From Candidatus Baldrarchaeum yapensis (GTDB taxonomy: Archaea > Asgardarchaeota > Baldrarchaeia > Baldrarchaeales > Baldrarchaeaceae), in assembly GCA_016840465.1 (NCBI GenBank), contig JAEOSH010000016.1:1-32000 (forward strand): 32,000 nt of DNA, given 5' to 3'. A program made the position numbers and the translations under genes. Numbering within the stretch: the first letter of the stretch is position 1; each line of letters opens with the position of its first letter. Below, piece by piece: positions 1 through 6,177 of the stretch. The notes beneath the pieces are model-generated. The model was not told the DNA's origin. It saw only the letters and a program-made list of their open reading frames with translations, and did no database searches.

Positions 1-593
1 ATTTTCAGCAATTCTATCAGACCTTCCATTACCCCCTCCCCTTTAATTGCGGACGCCTCAATTATTTTAACACCGTCCAATTTCAGTATTTCGCGAATGC
101 GTTCGGCCTTAAGGGCGTTTTTGAGGTCCTGCTTATTTGCAATTAACACCATAGGTATATTGTCTCCTAAGAAATTCCTTATTTCTTCCAATAGAGCGAA
201 GATATATCCCGCTTGGCCGGGCTTTGTGCTATCTATTACGAAAAGTACGCCGTCGCTACCTTTAGCTATAGCTTCTCTGACGTTCTTGAAATGCAACTGG
301 CCAGGCGCTCCCATGAGAGTTACTTCCCAGATCTCCATGTTTTTGCTCTTCAAATCCTCCCTTCTCAGCTTAGAACTTTCAATTATCTTGTCCTCATCTC
401 CGTGCAGCCATAACACTCTTCCCATGTCGAATCCAACGGTTGTGGAGATGATTGTGGATCCGTGCTTGTATATTCTTTCTATACTTACTGCTTTAGGGTC
501 GAGTGAGTGAACTAGTGTTGTTTTACCTGCTTGGAAGGGACCCACCACGTACACTTTTATTTTTCCCGCCACGTTTGTATGTTGGCCATGCAT
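1..593 (-). CDS. Small GTPase, MglA/CvnD-like (3' end runs off the window; not in the ORF track)
   Basis: Manual translation from ATG at 593 (SD-like GAGGT upstream): MHGQHTNVAGKIKVYVVGPFQAGKTTLV...STTVGFD...LMGAPGQLHF...GVLFVIDS...LIANKQD...EASAIKGEGV. G1, G2, G4 (NKQD) and G5 (SAI) are present; G3 is GAPGQ with no Asp. The frame stays open to position 1. Confidence 0.92.
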   Translation of the reverse strand, partial: MHGQHTNVAGKIKVYVVGPFQAGKTTLVHSLDPKAVSIERIYKHGSTIISTTVGFDMGRVLWLHGDEDKIIESSKLRREDLKSKNMEIWEVTLMGAPGQLHFKNVREAIAKGSDGVLFVIDSTKPGQAGYIFALLEEIRNFLGDNIPMVLIANKQDLKNALKAERIREILKLDGVKIIEASAIKGEGVMEGLIELLK

Positions 594-2689: not shown

Positions 2690-3781
2690 TTACAGTCTCT
2701 TGGCGGCCGCCCTTATTATGGGGTCCATGAACTCGTACTTCCCGTTCTCGTCCTTAAGTATAGATGCTTTGACCAGGTTCTTCAGCAATGTTGTAACGGT
2801 TGGGCTTGGGAGTTCCCTTCCTTCCGACGCTTCCATTTTTCTCTTTATTTCGCTCCACCTATTAGTTCCCTCTGCTACGGATTTCAGTATTATCACGTAT
2901 CGTCTTCTTCCCGCCTCTCTAAGTTTCAGGAAGTTGTTTATCTCGCTGATGGCTTGGTGCACTGCCATTTCGAATATTTCGTCTACGATCTCCTCTGTCA
3001 CTTTTCCCACGCTTACGGCTTTAGCGCCGAAAAATGTAAGCCATCCTGGAATTCCGTTGAATTTTTCGACTGCGTATTCCAGCACTTTTGTGTTCGGGTG
3101 CATGTTGTACTGTTTAAAGCCCATTTTCAGGAATTCGAGGGAGAGTTCTCTTGAAAAATTCTCAAGACGTACCTCATGAACGTATCTCCCGTAAAGGGGA
3201 GAGTCAGGGTCATCCAATGCAAGTGTTCCATACAGCAGGCCCATTTCTGAGCCCGTCAAAACCGTTGAGATGTTTCTCCGGTAGTCGTATATGTGGGCGA
3301 GCATTATTACTATCTGTCGGGCTCCTCTTATCTGCTGAAATTCATCAAACGCCAAAACGATTCTTGTTCCGTGATCCCTAGCCCACTCATCCATCTCATC
3401 TATTATTGATGAAATGGAGGCTTTCTTCCAAGATATCGAGATGCCGATGCCTAGAACCTCGACTCCCTTAATGTTTTTCATATAATCCTTAATTGTGTCC
3501 CAGATTTTTCTGTGTTTCCTTGCCATTTGGTTGAAAGCTTCCTGAAACGCGAGCATAATGTCTTTCTTTGAAGGATTGATGGGAAGGTTCCTGCAGTCGA
3601 CTATCACGTGCGGATACCCTGCTTCTTTCAGCCCTACTAAGAGCAGGGATGTCTTTCCGGTCCTTCTAAGTCCTAAAATCAGAGATAACGGATATCTAAG
3701 GCCATCTATGAACAGTTTAAGCTCATGTTCCCTGTCAAAGAAGTCCTCCCTGCGCTCCTTAGGACGAGGGTCAAACAACAT
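2690..3781 (-). CDS. Archaeal AAA+ ATPase (ATPase_2-like) with C-terminal winged helix
   Basis: N-terminus MLFDPRPKERREDFFDRE, Walker A GLRRTGKTS, Walker B LAFDEFQ, TGSEMG, GRY, GIPGWL, and a C-terminal wHTH ending YEFMDPI. Confidence 0.92.
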   Translation of the reverse strand: MLFDPRPKERREDFFDREHELKLFIDGLRYPLSLILGLRRTGKTSLLLVGLKEAGYPHVIVDCRNLPINPSKKDIMLAFQEAFNQMARKHRKIWDTIKDYMKNIKGVEVLGIGISISWKKASISSIIDEMDEWARDHGTRIVLAFDEFQQIRGARQIVIMLAHIYDYRRNISTVLTGSEMGLLYGTLALDDPDSPLYGRYVHEVRLENFSRELSLEFLKMGFKQYNMHPNTKVLEYAVEKFNGIPGWLTFFGAKAVSVGKVTEEIVDEIFEMAVHQAISEINNFLKLREAGRRRYVIILKSVAEGTNRWSEIKRKMEASEGRELPSPTVTTLLKNLVKASILKDENGKYEFMDPIIRAAAKRL

Positions 3782-3904: not shown

Positions 3905-4081
3905 TCACTTCTTTTCTTCCTTCTTTATTTCCTTTTTCCATTCTTTTATTATGTCCAAATTTTTATCCTCAAAGGAGAGGTTCTTTGCTTCTAGAGGCTT
4001 TCCAAGCCACTTCTTGTAGAAGGTCTTCAGATCCGGAAGGAACTCGAATATTACGGGATATTCGGGCGGCATGTTTGTCAT
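3905..4081 (-). CDS. 58-aa hypothetical protein translationally coupled to the GTPase (not in the ORF track)
   Basis: ATG at 4081 overlaps the GTPase TGA (ATGA) with AGGAG upstream. Translation: MTNMPPEYPVIFEFLPDLKTFYKKWLGKPLEAKNLSFEDKNLDIIKEWKKEIKKEEKK*. Confidence 0.7.
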   Translation of the reverse strand: MTNMPPEYPVIFEFLPDLKTFYKKWLGKPLEAKNLSFEDKNLDIIKEWKKEIKKEEKK

Positions 4082-4608
4082 AGAGTCTCCTTCTTCTTTC
4101 TCGCCAAGAACTCGTTCAGCTTCACATATTCGAATATCATGTCAAAGAGTCTGCCGACATTTTCTTTAAGTAATGCTGATGTTTGGAGGTAGAATTTCAC
4201 GTTTATTTTCTTTTTAAGTTCGTCTATTGCTTTTTCTACAGTTTCGTCATCTATTTTCTTAATATCTCTCTTATTCCCGACAACTATGACAGTCGTGTCC
4301 TTTCCTGCAAACTTAGTTATGTGATCAGCCCATGTGGATAGAAGACTCTCGAGCGTTTCGGGTCTTGACAGATCAAACACTAATACTACGAGGGATGCAC
4401 CTTTAAGTAAGTCTATTATTGCTTTTCTGAACCACTCCTGCCCAGCAAAGTCCCATACTACGATCTTGTAATTATCCTTTGTGAAGGTGTAGAAATCGAC
4501 CCCTCTTGTTGACCTTACCTCCGCAATACTCTCGCCCATGAACGCCTTTATTAAAGATGTCTTCCCGACAGCCGATTCTCCGACAAATGCTACTTTCATG
4601 GGTATCAA
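4078..4608 (-). CDS. Ras-superfamily small GTPase (Rab/Roc-like)
   Basis: G1 GESAVGKT, G2 STRGVDF, G3 WDFAGQE, G4 GNKRD, G5 TSAL. Start is TTG 4608 (TTGA overlap with the upstream stop, GAGGAGG upstream) or ATG 4599. No C-terminal Cys; basic tail RKKK. Confidence 0.95.
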   Translation of the reverse strand: MIPMKVAFVGESAVGKTSLIKAFMGESIAEVRSTRGVDFYTFTKDNYKIVVWDFAGQEWFRKAIIDLLKGASLVVLVFDLSRPETLESLLSTWADHITKFAGKDTTVIVVGNKRDIKKIDDETVEKAIDELKKKINVKFYLQTSALLKENVGRLFDMIFEYVKLNEFLARKKKETL

Positions 4609-4994
4609 GCAAAGACCCTCCTCACGCTTGTCATCAGGTCCATTATTATTTCCCTTGAGGTCTCCATTTCCTCCTTTGGGCATGATGTGACAAATATTAT
4701 CCCGTAATCCTCGTATCCTATGAGTAGGACGTTATCTCCCTTATCAATATGCATTATTACTGATCCTTTGAACTCCTTGACATTCATTAGGTCTCTGAGT
4801 TTGTTAATAGCATTGTGCACCAGCGATATCGCAACATCCTCGTCCACACTGCTTTTAAAGAGTATAAATCCGTCTATTGTGGATATAACGAGGTTTTTGA
4901 GGTTACTGATCTTTTTTGCTTTCTTATCTATCACCTTTTGAAAACTGTCCGGTTTTCTTCTGAAAATTTTGTCCAGTAATTTCTGAGGGTGCAT
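4605..4994 (-). CDS. Divergent roadblock/LC7 (or longin-like) domain protein
   Basis: Helix-LVISTIDGFILFKS-helix-beta strands-C-terminal helix; it parallels IIVRTDGLILAT in the canonical roadblock two genes upstream. Confidence 0.62.
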   Translation of the reverse strand: MHPQKLLDKIFRRKPDSFQKVIDKKAKKISNLKNLVISTIDGFILFKSSVDEDVAISLVHNAINKLRDLMNVKEFKGSVIMHIDKGDNVLLIGYEDYGIIFVTSCPKEEMETSREIIMDLMTSVRRVFA

Positions 4995-5028
4995 GCCACC
5001 ACCGAAAAAAGATGTTGAAGAGGTGGTA

Positions 5029-5511
5029 TTATTGCTTTTTTATGTAAGCTATCTTGAGGATACATTTCTCGTTGTTCAAGTCAGTTTCATGCTCTATGGA
5101 CCCTACAGTAACATTTCCCAACACTGTCTGTACGAACGCCGATGCGAGAGATATCAGGCAAAGAGGGCAGGTTTTTTCTCCCTTTTCTGCGGCGAGCCTT
5201 GCCATTTCGAGAAAATCACATCCCGTGACCTCGCATGTTACCTCGTACGCGTCTCCTGCATCTTCAATCTTGAGGTTAACGTTCTTAACAACACCCATCT
5301 GTTTTGCAAACTTTGCGTAACTCTCGATAAAGTTTGTGATGTTCGAGTAATTAAATCCGTACTCTTGAACTTTTTTCATCAAAAAACCAATGTCCTTGAC
5401 GAGTATATCGGCGACACGTCTGTATATGAGTTTTAATGATATGCCTAAGTTCTCTATCGCTTTGAACAAATAATAAAATATCCATCCACGCGCAAAACGT
5501 TGCTTGCTCAT
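5029..5511 (-). CDS. V4R / HNOX / Bet3-fold protein with conserved cysteines
   Basis: Helical N-half, then beta hairpin YEVTCEVTGCDF, TCPLC and terminal KCILKI, the Cys pattern typical of V4R domains. Strong SD GAGGTGA upstream. Confidence 0.68.
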   Translation of the reverse strand: MSKQRFARGWIFYYLFKAIENLGISLKLIYRRVADILVKDIGFLMKKVQEYGFNYSNITNFIESYAKFAKQMGVVKNVNLKIEDAGDAYEVTCEVTGCDFLEMARLAAEKGEKTCPLCLISLASAFVQTVLGNVTVGSIEHETDLNNEKCILKIAYIKKQ

Positions 5512-5534
5512 ATTCTCACCTCAATTCAAAGTAA

Positions 5535-5942
5535 TTATATTTTTTTCAGAACTTCTCTAATTTTGTCAGCAGCCCTTTTCATTTCAACGAACATGAGACC
5601 CAAGTTTGCATCCTTTTGAGCGATAGCAACAAGAGATACTTCCGGGGTAACGGATACAAGCATTATTATCCTGTTTGACCCGCGAATTATCGCATTTTCT
5701 AGAGTTCCACCACCCAACTCCTCAAGAACTCGCGCCCCCACTCCGAAGACGGATGCGCTCATCGCGGCTACGATGTCCCCATCTATATCCTCGGGCAATG
5801 CGGTAGCGAGAATGAGACCATCGGTCCTGACAATAATTGATCCTTCTATTTCGGCGTCCTTTCTTTCCATCTCCTTCAAAATGGATGTTAGAGTTTCTCT
5901 GTATGAAACGATACTTTTCTTTCCTGATTTAAAAATTAGCAT
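5535..5942 (-). CDS. Roadblock/LC7 (MglB-like) domain protein
   Basis: EIEGSIIVRTDGLILATALP..DIVAAMSASVFGVGARVLEELGGGTLENAIIRG...NLGLMFVEMKRAADKI. Start moved from 6035 to ATG 5942, which has GGAGGT 6 nt upstream. Confidence 0.95.
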   Translation of the reverse strand: MLIFKSGKKSIVSYRETLTSILKEMERKDAEIEGSIIVRTDGLILATALPEDIDGDIVAAMSASVFGVGARVLEELGGGTLENAIIRGSNRIIMLVSVTPEVSLVAIAQKDANLGLMFVEMKRAADKIREVLKKI

Positions 5943-6144
5943 ATGCGGACCTCCATCAACTAATAAATATTCTCGATATTTTTCGATCTGAATATTGCCG
6001 TGTCCCTTCTGCAAGAAATACTGGTTACCTTTCATTTTTATATTTCGTTTTTCTTGCGATAAGGCATGTAACTTGTTTTAAGTTGGCAATTCCAAGTGAC
6101 GAGAATCTCTGTAACCCCCGAGCACATCGGAGAACGCTGAATAA

Positions 6145-6177
6145 CATGCATTAAAATTCATGCATTAAAATTAATGC
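6145..6177. repeat. 14-bp tandem duplication containing an inverted repeat (putative double operator)
   Basis: CATGCATTAAAATT occurs twice (6145-6158, 6159-6172). GCATTAA-AA-TTAATGC (6162-6177) is a perfect 7-2-7 palindrome, with a one-mismatch copy at 6148-6163. Confidence 0.75.

Follow-up and report, generated by a model that had tools for sequence, protein, structure and literature searches.

We analyzed a 32,000-nucleotide stretch of the genome of the Asgard archaeon Candidatus Baldrarchaeum yapensis (GenBank assembly GCA_016840465.1; contig JAEOSH010000016.1, positions 1 to 32,000, referred to here as the window), and within it a compact operon on the minus strand that runs from position 5942 to position 3905 and encodes a Roadblock protein, a cysteine-bearing protein with a predicted Bet3 fold, a second Roadblock-fold protein, a Rab-like GTPase, and a short trailing open reading frame (ORF). 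The first four of these genes keep their order in two further Asgard lineages, and we interpret them as a probable regulatory module for a small GTPase. Roadblock dimers serve as GTPase-facing platforms in the MglB-MglA system, in conservons, and in Ragulator, and the core of TRAPP, the guanine nucleotide exchange factor (GEF) of Rab1 and Rab11, is built from Bet3/TRAPPC3, Trs31, and Trs33 together with the longins Bet5, Trs23, and Trs20. The genomes of Asgard archaea hold genes for eukaryote-like small GTPases by the dozen, together with numerous Roadblock, longin, and TRAPPC3-like proteins.

Anatomy of the operon

Numbered in order of transcription, the five ORFs are g1 (5942 to 5535; 135 amino acids, Roadblock/LC7, with an alternative 166-amino-acid frame from 6035), g2 (5511 to 5029; 160 amino acids, a four-cysteine protein modeled with the Bet3/TRAPPC3-V4R-H-NOX fold), g3 (4994 to 4605; 129 amino acids, a fast-evolving protein of Roadblock fold), g4 (starting at 4608 with TTG or at 4599 with ATG and ending at 4078; 176 or 173 amino acids, a Rab-like GTPase), and g5 (4081 to 3905; a trailing ORF of 58 amino acids, homologous to the carboxyl terminus of Acetone_carb_G). 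A first, sequence-only reading of this DNA had described five co-oriented genes with gaps of 23 and 34 nucleotides, two 4-nucleotide overlaps, and Shine-Dalgarno (SD)-like motifs, and the sequence bears this description out: the gaps are 23 nucleotides between g1 and g2 and 34 between g2 and g3, g4 and g5 overlap by 4 nucleotides (ATGA), and g3 and g4 overlap by 4 nucleotides if g4 begins at the TTG, the ATG leaving a gap of 5 nucleotides. Each of the five starts is preceded by an SD-like motif (in order GGAGG, GAGGTGA, GGTGGTGG, GAGGAGG, and AAGGAG), of which the first belongs to the 135-amino-acid start of g1, a length that agrees with those of its orthologues (124 to 145 amino acids). Independent gene calls on six other assemblies of the organism, 99.9-100% identical over the operon, recover the same five genes, with g1 called as 135 amino acids in five of the six and g4 as either 176 or 173.

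Two Roadblock-fold proteins and a Rab-like GTPase

The family assignments made for g1, g3, and g4 at first reading (a canonical Roadblock, a divergent Roadblock-like protein, and a Rab-like GTPase whose five G boxes are all present) are each upheld by the searches, at different levels of evidence. The g1 product matches the Pfam family Robl_LC7 (PF03259) well above its cut-off (E-value 5.7e-15; 55.3 bits, the cut-off being 23; alignment over positions 12-91 of the 91 in the profile), gives a weak MAPKK1_Int/LAMTOR3 signal in Pfam (E-value 0.004-0.007), and shares 38-46% identity with the products of Roadblock genes lying immediately next to g2-family genes in other Asgard genomes.

The g4 product is a Ras-superfamily GTPase (Pfam Ras 2.7e-27, 95.7 bits; Roc 1.7e-21; Arf 6e-14; Gtr1_RagA at 21.2 bits, short of its cut-off of 22) whose top 60 matches among PDB sequences are all Rab, Ypt, or Sec4 proteins (the best being Rab6 at 1.6e-20, followed by Ypt6, Sec4, Rab12, and Rab1). 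Its G boxes are read as GESAVGKT (G1), the T of STRGVDF (G2), WDFAGQE (G3), GNKRD (G4), and TSAL (G5), and the catalytic Gln is present in DFAGQ. The carboxyl terminus (...KLNEFLARKKKETL) has a basic tail (ARKKKETL) and no Cys, and we therefore call g4 Rab-like rather than a bona fide Rab because it offers no carboxyl-terminal Cys for geranylgeranylation; judged by its sequence, g4 cannot be prenylated in the Rab manner. Cys-free carboxyl termini are also found in the g4 orthologue and paralogues at L049-L057 and in the orthologues at L118, L120, and L125. The g4 orthogroup (50-61% identity) was detected in only 7 of 400 genomes of the phylum, namely this one, members of family f19 (including Candidatus Njordarchaeum guaymaensis, whose GTPase is the nearest named relative), and f22.

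For g3, sequence searches return little: no Pfam family is found at E ≤ 0.1 (Robl_LC7 at its gathering cut-off included), a word-index search and a search of 250 genomes of the phylum yield no relatives, and the only match among PDB sequences is a spurious one to an adiponectin repeat. Structure models point to a Roadblock fold. The model in the ESM Atlas (predicted template modeling score [pTM] 0.83) matches Robl_LC7 clusters with a template modeling (TM) score of 0.70, and a single-sequence AlphaFold2 model, itself of low confidence (predicted local distance difference test [pLDDT] 61), has the topology alpha-beta-beta-alpha-beta-beta-beta-alpha and finds as its best PDB matches MglB chains (6izw, 6h5b, and 6hjm, including MglA-MglB complexes), then the RagC carboxyl-terminal domain and LAMTORs. 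All of the top 50 Foldseek matches in the PDB are Roadblock-fold proteins (MglB, MglC, RagC carboxyl-terminal domain, LAMTORs, LC7, and Asgard Roadblocks), at TM scores of 0.6-0.67. A positional orthologue of 127 amino acids at locus L118 is 31% identical to g3 (E-value 9e-9), and the two together, compared with a Roadblock alignment in HHalign, give a weak match in the correct register (probability 37%, E-value 3.6e-4).

A cysteine-bearing protein of predicted Bet3 fold

The sequence-only reading took g2 for a Cys-bearing protein of V4R/Bet3 fold. The fold and the cysteines stand; membership of the V4R or TRAPP families in Pfam does not, as no profile match is found. An AlphaFold2 model of g2, built with 15 relatives in the alignment (pLDDT 76.6, pTM 0.68), has as its best Foldseek matches in the PDB TRAPPC3/Bet3, the sensor domains of V4R type in PoxR, MopR, and DmpR, and H-NOX, with TM scores of 0.55-0.59 to TRAPPC3, PoxR, and MopR. 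Alignment with VIA-align to Bet3 (6aq3) covers 152 of 160 residues at Z 10.4 with a root mean square deviation of 3.8; matches to Bet3/TRAPPC3 in general, which include Bet3 chains in TRAPP-Ypt1 complexes, cover 146-152 of the 160 residues at Z 9-10.4, that to TRAPPC3 of Thorarchaeota (Thor-TRAPPC3, 7yh3) scores Z 8.9, and those to V4R sensors Z 7.3-7.8. The top cluster matched in AFDB is annotated '4-vinyl reductase domain' (1.9e-9). The model shows the features by which the Bet3/V4R/H-NOX fold was recognized, that is, four helices on a four-stranded sheet, two layers, and a match over the whole chain.

Conserved cysteines in the g2 family are C98, C115-P116-x-C118, and C150; in the model C98 follows strand 2, C115 and C118 start the helix of residues 116-123, and C150 lies in strand 4. 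These four residues form a candidate zinc site that would link the sheet to a helix, as the putative counterpart of the four-Cys zinc site of Thor-TRAPPC3.

Sequence profiles place the family apart. Neither g2 nor 15 members of its family match any Pfam family; the g2 sequence by itself finds only chance matches among PDB sequences (for example, TRIM5 zinc-finger fragments), and a 51-member g2 profile finds designed helical proteins and the like, with no Bet3 or TRAPPC3 among them. A search of this genome with PF02830 (V4R) recovers seven other proteins and not g2, and a search of it with PF04051 (TRAPP) recovers none. The Asgard PF04051 proteins and the V4R proteins match each other in HHalign at 96.6%. 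Because the profile link from g2 to V4R and TRAPP fails, we count g2 as a fold-level relative only: as modeled, it is a relative of Bet3/V4R by fold, outside both Pfam families. The family is small (1.84 billion proteins yield 58 cluster representatives) and is mostly seen in Asgard archaea.

Conservation of gene order

Gene order that relatives do not keep had been named at first reading as one of the findings that would count against it, and this refutation fails: a survey across Asgard genomes finds the order Roadblock, g2-like, Roadblock-like, GTPase in three lineages (that of the window and two others), with looser linkage elsewhere. One of the further lineages (L118, L119) has a Roadblock gene, a g2 orthologue (36% identity), the 127-amino-acid g3 orthologue (31%), the GTPase (58%), and a gene for a 274-amino-acid protein. 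The other (genome G042, locus L125) has a Roadblock gene (42%), a gene for a 162-amino-acid g2-like protein, one for a 138-amino-acid Roadblock-like protein, and the GTPase (61%); in HHalign the 162-amino-acid protein matches the g2 family at a probability of 53% and the 138-amino-acid protein matches Roadblocks at 88.5%. The third position is held in all three lineages by a fast-evolving gene of Roadblock type. We do not regard the arrangement as a product of chance: other lineages show this gene order too, with protein identities of 31-61%.

The looser arrangements include Roadblock, g2-like, GTPase (55%), and a 270-amino-acid protein (L120, L121); a GTPase gene divergent from a Roadblock/g2-like pair (L123); a g2-like gene with a convergent GTPase gene (57%; L117); and a divergent GTPase gene adjoining a Roadblock/g2-like pair (G083; L128). 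At L013 a partial upstream ORF and a g2-like gene are followed by a convergent FtsX gene. In a tree of the g2 family the window's protein falls in a clade of six representatives (support 99/95), the sister of which is the clade of a second cassette of the same organism (cassette C, described below); the other neighborhoods of the six-member clade are those given above for L117 to L121, L123, and L013. At four of eight other loci of the GTPase (L127, L129, L130, and L132, Njordarchaeum included) it has no adjoining Roadblock gene and is followed by a gene for a double zinc-ribbon protein of about 270 amino acids; at a fifth, L131, a Roadblock gene stands before that of the GTPase, and the gene for the zinc-ribbon protein is convergent.

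A wider family of Roadblock/Bet3-fold cassettes

A profile search of 400 genomes of the phylum finds the g2 family in 125 of them and in 45 of 85 genera. We counted neighbors at the best 30 g2-family loci, taking as partners genes within 1.5 kb: a Roadblock gene is present at 18 and a GTPase gene at 11, and every adjoining GTPase other than the window's own is of MglA type. The typical order at these loci is g2-like, Roadblock, GTPase, Roadblock. The MglA-type GTPases of the cassettes constitute a separate family, with Pfam signals of Arf, Ras, and ATP_bind_1; those of the sister cassettes are about 26% identical to g4 over part of its length. Since MglA-type GTPases are the usual company of the Roadblock/g2 pair, its link with a Rab-like GTPase looks secondary and lineage-restricted; on the evidence of these neighborhoods, the pair is the older unit and its coupling to the Rab-like GTPase is a variant limited to certain lineages.

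Two such cassettes lie next to the operon itself. Some 3.3 kb downstream of it, beyond the start of the window (L110:14918-18381, same organism), cassette B encodes a GTPase of 206 amino acids, a Roadblock of 124, and a g2-like protein of 155, and cassette C a GTPase of 210, a Roadblock of 127, and a g2-like protein of 156, so that the operon and cassettes B and C place three GTPase/Roadblock/Bet3-fold units within about 9 kb. The g2-like protein of cassette B retains three of the four Cys. The window holds the 5' part of the MglA-type GTPase gene that heads cassette B (3..593, minus strand), which is cut by the contig end and continues in longer contigs of the organism; it is 64% identical to the GTPase that heads a cassette in a genome of the same order (G004), where the genes run GTPase, Roadblock, g2-like, Roadblock, g2-like.

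Several further arrangements were noted. In other Asgard families, at three loci (L133:1313-2398, L134:1277-2353, and L135:2036-3085) a g2-like domain is fused to an amino-terminal multi-pass membrane domain (total length about 350-365 amino acids), and these genes adjoin one for a protein of 368-373 amino acids that is longin-like by sequence appearance. At L136:421-1998, again in another Asgard family, the fusion is between a g2-like domain and a long coiled-coil protein, and after it come two Roadblock genes and one for a coiled-coil/Roadblock fusion. A closed Asgard genome of 3.6 Mb (G039:C1) holds 9-13 g2-family paralogues, several of them in tandem (for example, at 2733157-2736522 and 3383732-3386552) and most with no Roadblock gene within 1.5 kb. 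Elsewhere in the genome of the window, two tandem canonical V4R (PF02830) genes end about 40 nucleotides from a convergent Rab-like GTPase gene (G000:C52:48976-50168), which makes a second case of V4R and GTPase genes side by side, and an array at G000:C64:15450-17793 reads Roadblock (minus strand), Roadblock, Roadblock, MglA-like GTPase, Roadblock.

The 3' end of the operon and its flanks

The fifth member of the operon, first read as a 58-residue microprotein, does not hold up as part of the system. Over its whole length g5 aligns with the last 55 or so residues of proteins of 161-193 amino acids in 34 other Asgard genomes (43-76% identity), two of which (164 and 193 amino acids), when run in Pfam, match Acetone_carb_G (PF08882) at 1e-37 to 3e-41; g5 itself reaches that family at an E-value of 0.0057 (17.3 bits against a cut-off of 21), over profile positions 91-113 of 113 only, and so falls short of the full-length domain with its zinc-binding Cys pairs. 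A search of this genome for a full-length Acetone_carb_G copy found none, and relatives carry a protein of about 270 amino acids at the position of g5. The fragment, translationally coupled to the GTPase gene through the ATGA, thus reads as a gene remnant or a recruited piece, at a site where the operon would have lost its original 3' neighbor, and by this comparison it is outside the conserved module and not a partner. We also considered g5 as a split-off carboxyl-terminal tail of the GTPase and rejected this, its homologues being the carboxyl termini of Acetone_carb_G proteins and not of GTPases.

The protein found in its place in relatives (270-277 amino acids; L118:1823-2647, L120:5070-5882, and L047:5720-6553) follows the orthologous GTPase, with a start that overlaps the GTPase stop by 4 nucleotides in L118 and L047. 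It has two amino-terminal zinc-ribbon-like repeats (CPxC...H.DH), a helical carboxyl-terminal half, and no Pfam family, and is likely an effector or partner of the GTPases of the g4 orthogroup. With that query no homologue was found in the present genome (96% completeness; 2,267,786 bases in 100 contigs).

Upstream of g1 the intergenic region is unusually long, at 750 nucleotides. A candidate archaeal TATA-like box (GAAATATAAAA; 6036..6046, minus strand) is read directly upstream of the ATG at 6035; were it in use, the transcript would begin some 25 nucleotides downstream, and the ATG at 5942 with its GGAGG would be the first start. The same region holds an exact 14-nucleotide tandem direct repeat (AATTTTAATGCATG, twice; 6145-6172, minus strand) that contains a TATA-like TTTTAA and may be a promoter or operator element. 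A scan for sigma-70 promoters and intrinsic terminators gave matches at or below shuffled expectation, such a scan being unsuited to archaea, and Rfam and tRNA scans of the window gave no matches. After the operon, on the same strand, comes a gene for an archaeal ATPase (2690-3781, minus strand; Pfam ATPase_2 and an MCM_C winged helix). The operon of G042 likewise precedes a same-strand gene, for a protein of 445 amino acids that is ATPase-like by eye (L125:30-1367, minus strand); the two proteins have no detectable similarity.

A probable regulatory module for a small GTPase

Reasoning by analogy, we consider it about 60% probable that the operon encodes a small-GTPase regulatory module that follows the logic of MglA/MglB or of conservons, with a Bet3-fold sensor or scaffold added. 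Under this model g1-g4 would form one conserved transcription unit, in which a GTPase switch is encoded together with its own regulators. A Roadblock dimer (g1/g1 or g1/g3) would form a platform that docks on g4 and controls its nucleotide state, in the manner of MglB with MglA, of CvnB-type proteins in conservons, and of LAMTOR dimers with Rags. The g2 protein, probably a zinc-stabilized dimer with a ligand cavity like that of Thor-TRAPPC3, would be attached to the Roadblock platform as an input or sensor subunit or as a scaffold. The basic, Cys-free tail of g4 may confer a weak affinity for membranes. In this lineage the Rab-like GTPase, with a divergent Roadblock of its own, would have taken the place held by MglA-type GTPases in the sister cassettes. 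We favor this model because Roadblock dimers face GTPases in MglB-MglA, conservons, and Ragulator, and because Thor-TRAPPC3 is a zinc-bearing homodimer with a cavity. The anatomy of the operon, the families and folds of its products, the conserved and the looser linkage, the tree of the g2 family, the survey of the phylum, and the sister cassettes also speak for it.

Published work supplies both halves of the analogy. Operons of Roadblock and GTPase genes are a classic arrangement (Koonin and Aravind 2000; Wuichet and Sogaard-Andersen), Roadblocks of MglB/CvnB type co-evolve with their GTPases (PMC4316618), and Thor-TRAPPC3, a Zn-Cys4 homodimer, has a cavity, its authors proposing that it binds ligands (Tran et al. 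2024, PMC10933270).

Several observations weigh against the model. The GTPase orthologue in Candidatus Njordarchaeum guaymaensis and in several f19 genomes has neither a Roadblock nor a g2-like gene adjoining it, and 19 of the best 30 g2-family loci have no GTPase gene within 1.5 kb. The g2 family as compared by HHalign with the seven V4R proteins of the genome gives a probability of 0.5%, and with the Asgard PF04051 proteins one of 2%; the predicted fold of g2 leans on a model of medium confidence, backed by the AFDB match. The g3 product, too, is assigned by its modeled fold, with weak support from profiles. A complex prediction of g1, g2, and g3 with g4 as partner gave no verdict (score 0.02 against a mark of 0.32) and weighs neither way.

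Alternatively, the operon might hold two independent co-transcribed pairs, g3-g4 as an MglB/MglA-like GTPase-activating protein (GAP) and switch, and g1-g2 serving other GTPases (such as the MglA-type ones of cassettes B and C) or none, with no four-protein complex. That g1-g2-type pairs are common with no GTPase within 1.5 kb, and also occur with MglA-type GTPases, fits such a division, as do the relative in which the closest g2 homologue precedes an unrelated convergent FtsX gene and the Njordarchaeum-type genomes in which the GTPase orthologue lacks the Roadblock and g2-like genes. Five of the six representatives of the clade that includes the window's g2, that gene among the five, nevertheless adjoin the same GTPase orthogroup, in four arrangements, and at L120 the GTPase directly follows g2, with no g3-like gene between, so that the g1/g2 pair is the only co-encoded Roadblock partner it has; we consider two independent pairs rather unlikely.

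The sequence-only reading had gone further, to a candidate proto-TRAPP/Ragulator switch with a single ligand-sensing GEF/GAP complex. As a rival explanation this becomes a proto-TRAPP or proto-Ragulator in which the Bet3-fold protein and the Roadblocks make one complex, act as a GEF for the Rab-like GTPase, and are evolutionarily continuous with TRAPP or Ragulator. Along its whole chain the g2 model indeed comes nearest to eukaryotic Bet3/TRAPPC3 (Z 9-10.4 against 7.3-7.8 for bacterial V4R sensors), the GTPase is Rab-like, the linkage of the three kinds of protein is conserved, and Roadblock and longin are related platform folds of Rab, Rag, and Arf regulators (PMC10933270). Differences in Z of 1-3 on a model of pLDDT 77 are thin, however; the g2 family has no profile relation to the Pfam TRAPP of Thorarchaeota type (the probability of 2% given above), the genome has no PF04051 protein, the partners are Roadblocks and not longins, and the Roadblock/g2 pair is found mostly with MglA-type GTPases, its link to a Rab being secondary and lineage-restricted. 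Since the pair usually stands beside MglA-type GTPases, its first pointer is to MglA/MglB or conservon-type logic and not to TRAPP, and an exchange complex of this sort strikes us as distinctly improbable.

Fortuitous juxtaposition of functionally unrelated genes, with g3 and g5 as spurious ORFs, could appeal to the absence of sequence relatives of g3 in large searches and to the fragment-like g5, but the synteny effectively excludes it for g1-g4: the order persists between lineages at 31-61% identity, g3 has an orthologue at the corresponding position (E-value 9e-9) and a confident ESM Atlas model of Roadblock fold, and the starts overlap or nearly so, each with an SD motif.

Comparison with known systems

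The module we favor, a GTPase switch with Roadblock regulators and a Bet3-fold subunit, resembles several known systems in part. As in MglA-MglB of Myxococcus xanthus and Thermus thermophilus, a Ras-superfamily GTPase is encoded alongside a protein of Roadblock/LC7 type; the g3 model finds its best structural matches in MglB chains, and cassettes B and C carry MglA-type GTPases; unlike in those systems, g4 is Rab-like and not of MglA type, there are two different Roadblock-fold proteins, and the Cys4 protein of predicted Bet3/V4R fold has no counterpart. With the actinobacterial conservons (CvnA-D; PMC4316618, PMC13343842) the operon shares a four-gene layout, a small GTPase, and an MglB-type Roadblock, and the further conserved subunits of conservons include a sensor; conservons, too, occur as several paralogous cassettes per genome, which fits the three seen here in about 9 kb. 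Among the genes called in the operon and in cassettes B and C, however, there is no CvnA histidine kinase and no CvnC (DUF742) recognizable by Pfam, the host is archaeal, and the GTPase is Rab-like; the Bet3/V4R-fold protein may replace the sensor.

Ragulator-Rag (LAMTOR2/3 and LAMTOR4/5 heterodimers with RagA/C) likewise combines two unlike Roadblock-fold proteins with a GTPase, g1 gives a weak LAMTOR3 signal, and the g3 model matches LAMTORs and the carboxyl-terminal roadblock domains of Rags, whereas g4 consists of a G domain only (173-176 amino acids), without the carboxyl-terminal roadblock domain that defines Rags, and the operon has no LAMTOR1-like anchor. The TRAPP core is approached in that the g2 model is nearest to Bet3 and that its gene is linked with those of a Rab-like GTPase and of proteins of platform fold; it differs in that g2 has no sequence or profile relation to Pfam TRAPP, the partners are Roadblocks and not longins, a single Bet3-fold gene stands in place of several paralogues, and g2 has a Cys4 set, whereas mouse Bet3 lacks the Cys4 site (PMC10933270). 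The Asgard proteins Thor-TRAPPC3, Roadblock, and Thor-Rab (PMC10933270; PDB 7yh3, 7yh2, and 7f8m) are the same three kinds of protein from the same phylum, and the four conserved Cys of g2 may correspond to the four by which Thor-TRAPPC3 holds Zn; here, by contrast, they lie in one conserved operon, and g2 belongs to a sequence family different from that of Thor-TRAPPC3.

In a conserved Asgard operon that has been proposed as a GTPase-regulatory module (Liu et al., bioRxiv 10.1101/2020.10.19.343400), a LAMTOR1-like Roadblock is encoded with a Rab-like GTPase and a DENN-domain protein. That operon, too, joins a Roadblock-superfamily gene and a Rab-like GTPase gene in one Asgard operon, but its third component is a DENN protein and not one of Bet3/V4R fold, and the text of the preprint contains neither 'V4R' nor 'TRAPP'. 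In the genome of the window, a locus that encodes a 314-amino-acid double-Roadblock protein, a 297-amino-acid protein, and a GTPase (G000:C64:44439-46836) may be a candidate for that published operon. Our literature search found no description of a conserved Roadblock/Bet3-fold/GTPase operon.

Significance

In the Asgard archaeon MK-D1, small-GTPase genes are generally not in operons with Roadblock, longin, or TRAPPC3 genes, and because of this regulators and GTPases cannot be matched as partners from the layout of that genome (PMC10933270). The operon described here and its copies in two other lineages nominate partners for one GTPase orthogroup, namely two Roadblock-fold proteins and one Cys4 protein of predicted Bet3 fold, and the products of g1-g4 are small, soluble, and suited to reconstitution. 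The double zinc-ribbon protein of about 270 amino acids would be a further conserved partner of the g4 orthogroup, and the ORF of 58 amino acids should not be counted as a member of the system. The Roadblock/Bet3-fold pair, an old and widespread Asgard cassette whose usual GTPases are of MglA type, offers an evolutionary route from prokaryotic switches of Mgl or conservon type toward eukaryote-like regulation of Rabs.

A bolder extension, to which we give little credence, is that the Roadblock/Bet3-fold pair is a true archaeal exchange or GAP platform, coupled to a Rab-like GTPase in the Baldr and Njord lineages, that the operon is a living relative of the ancestor of TRAPP, and that the ligand cavity and zinc site link a small-molecule signal to the switch; were this true, the logic of a Bet3-fold subunit and platform-fold subunits controlling a Rab would be older than eukaryotes.

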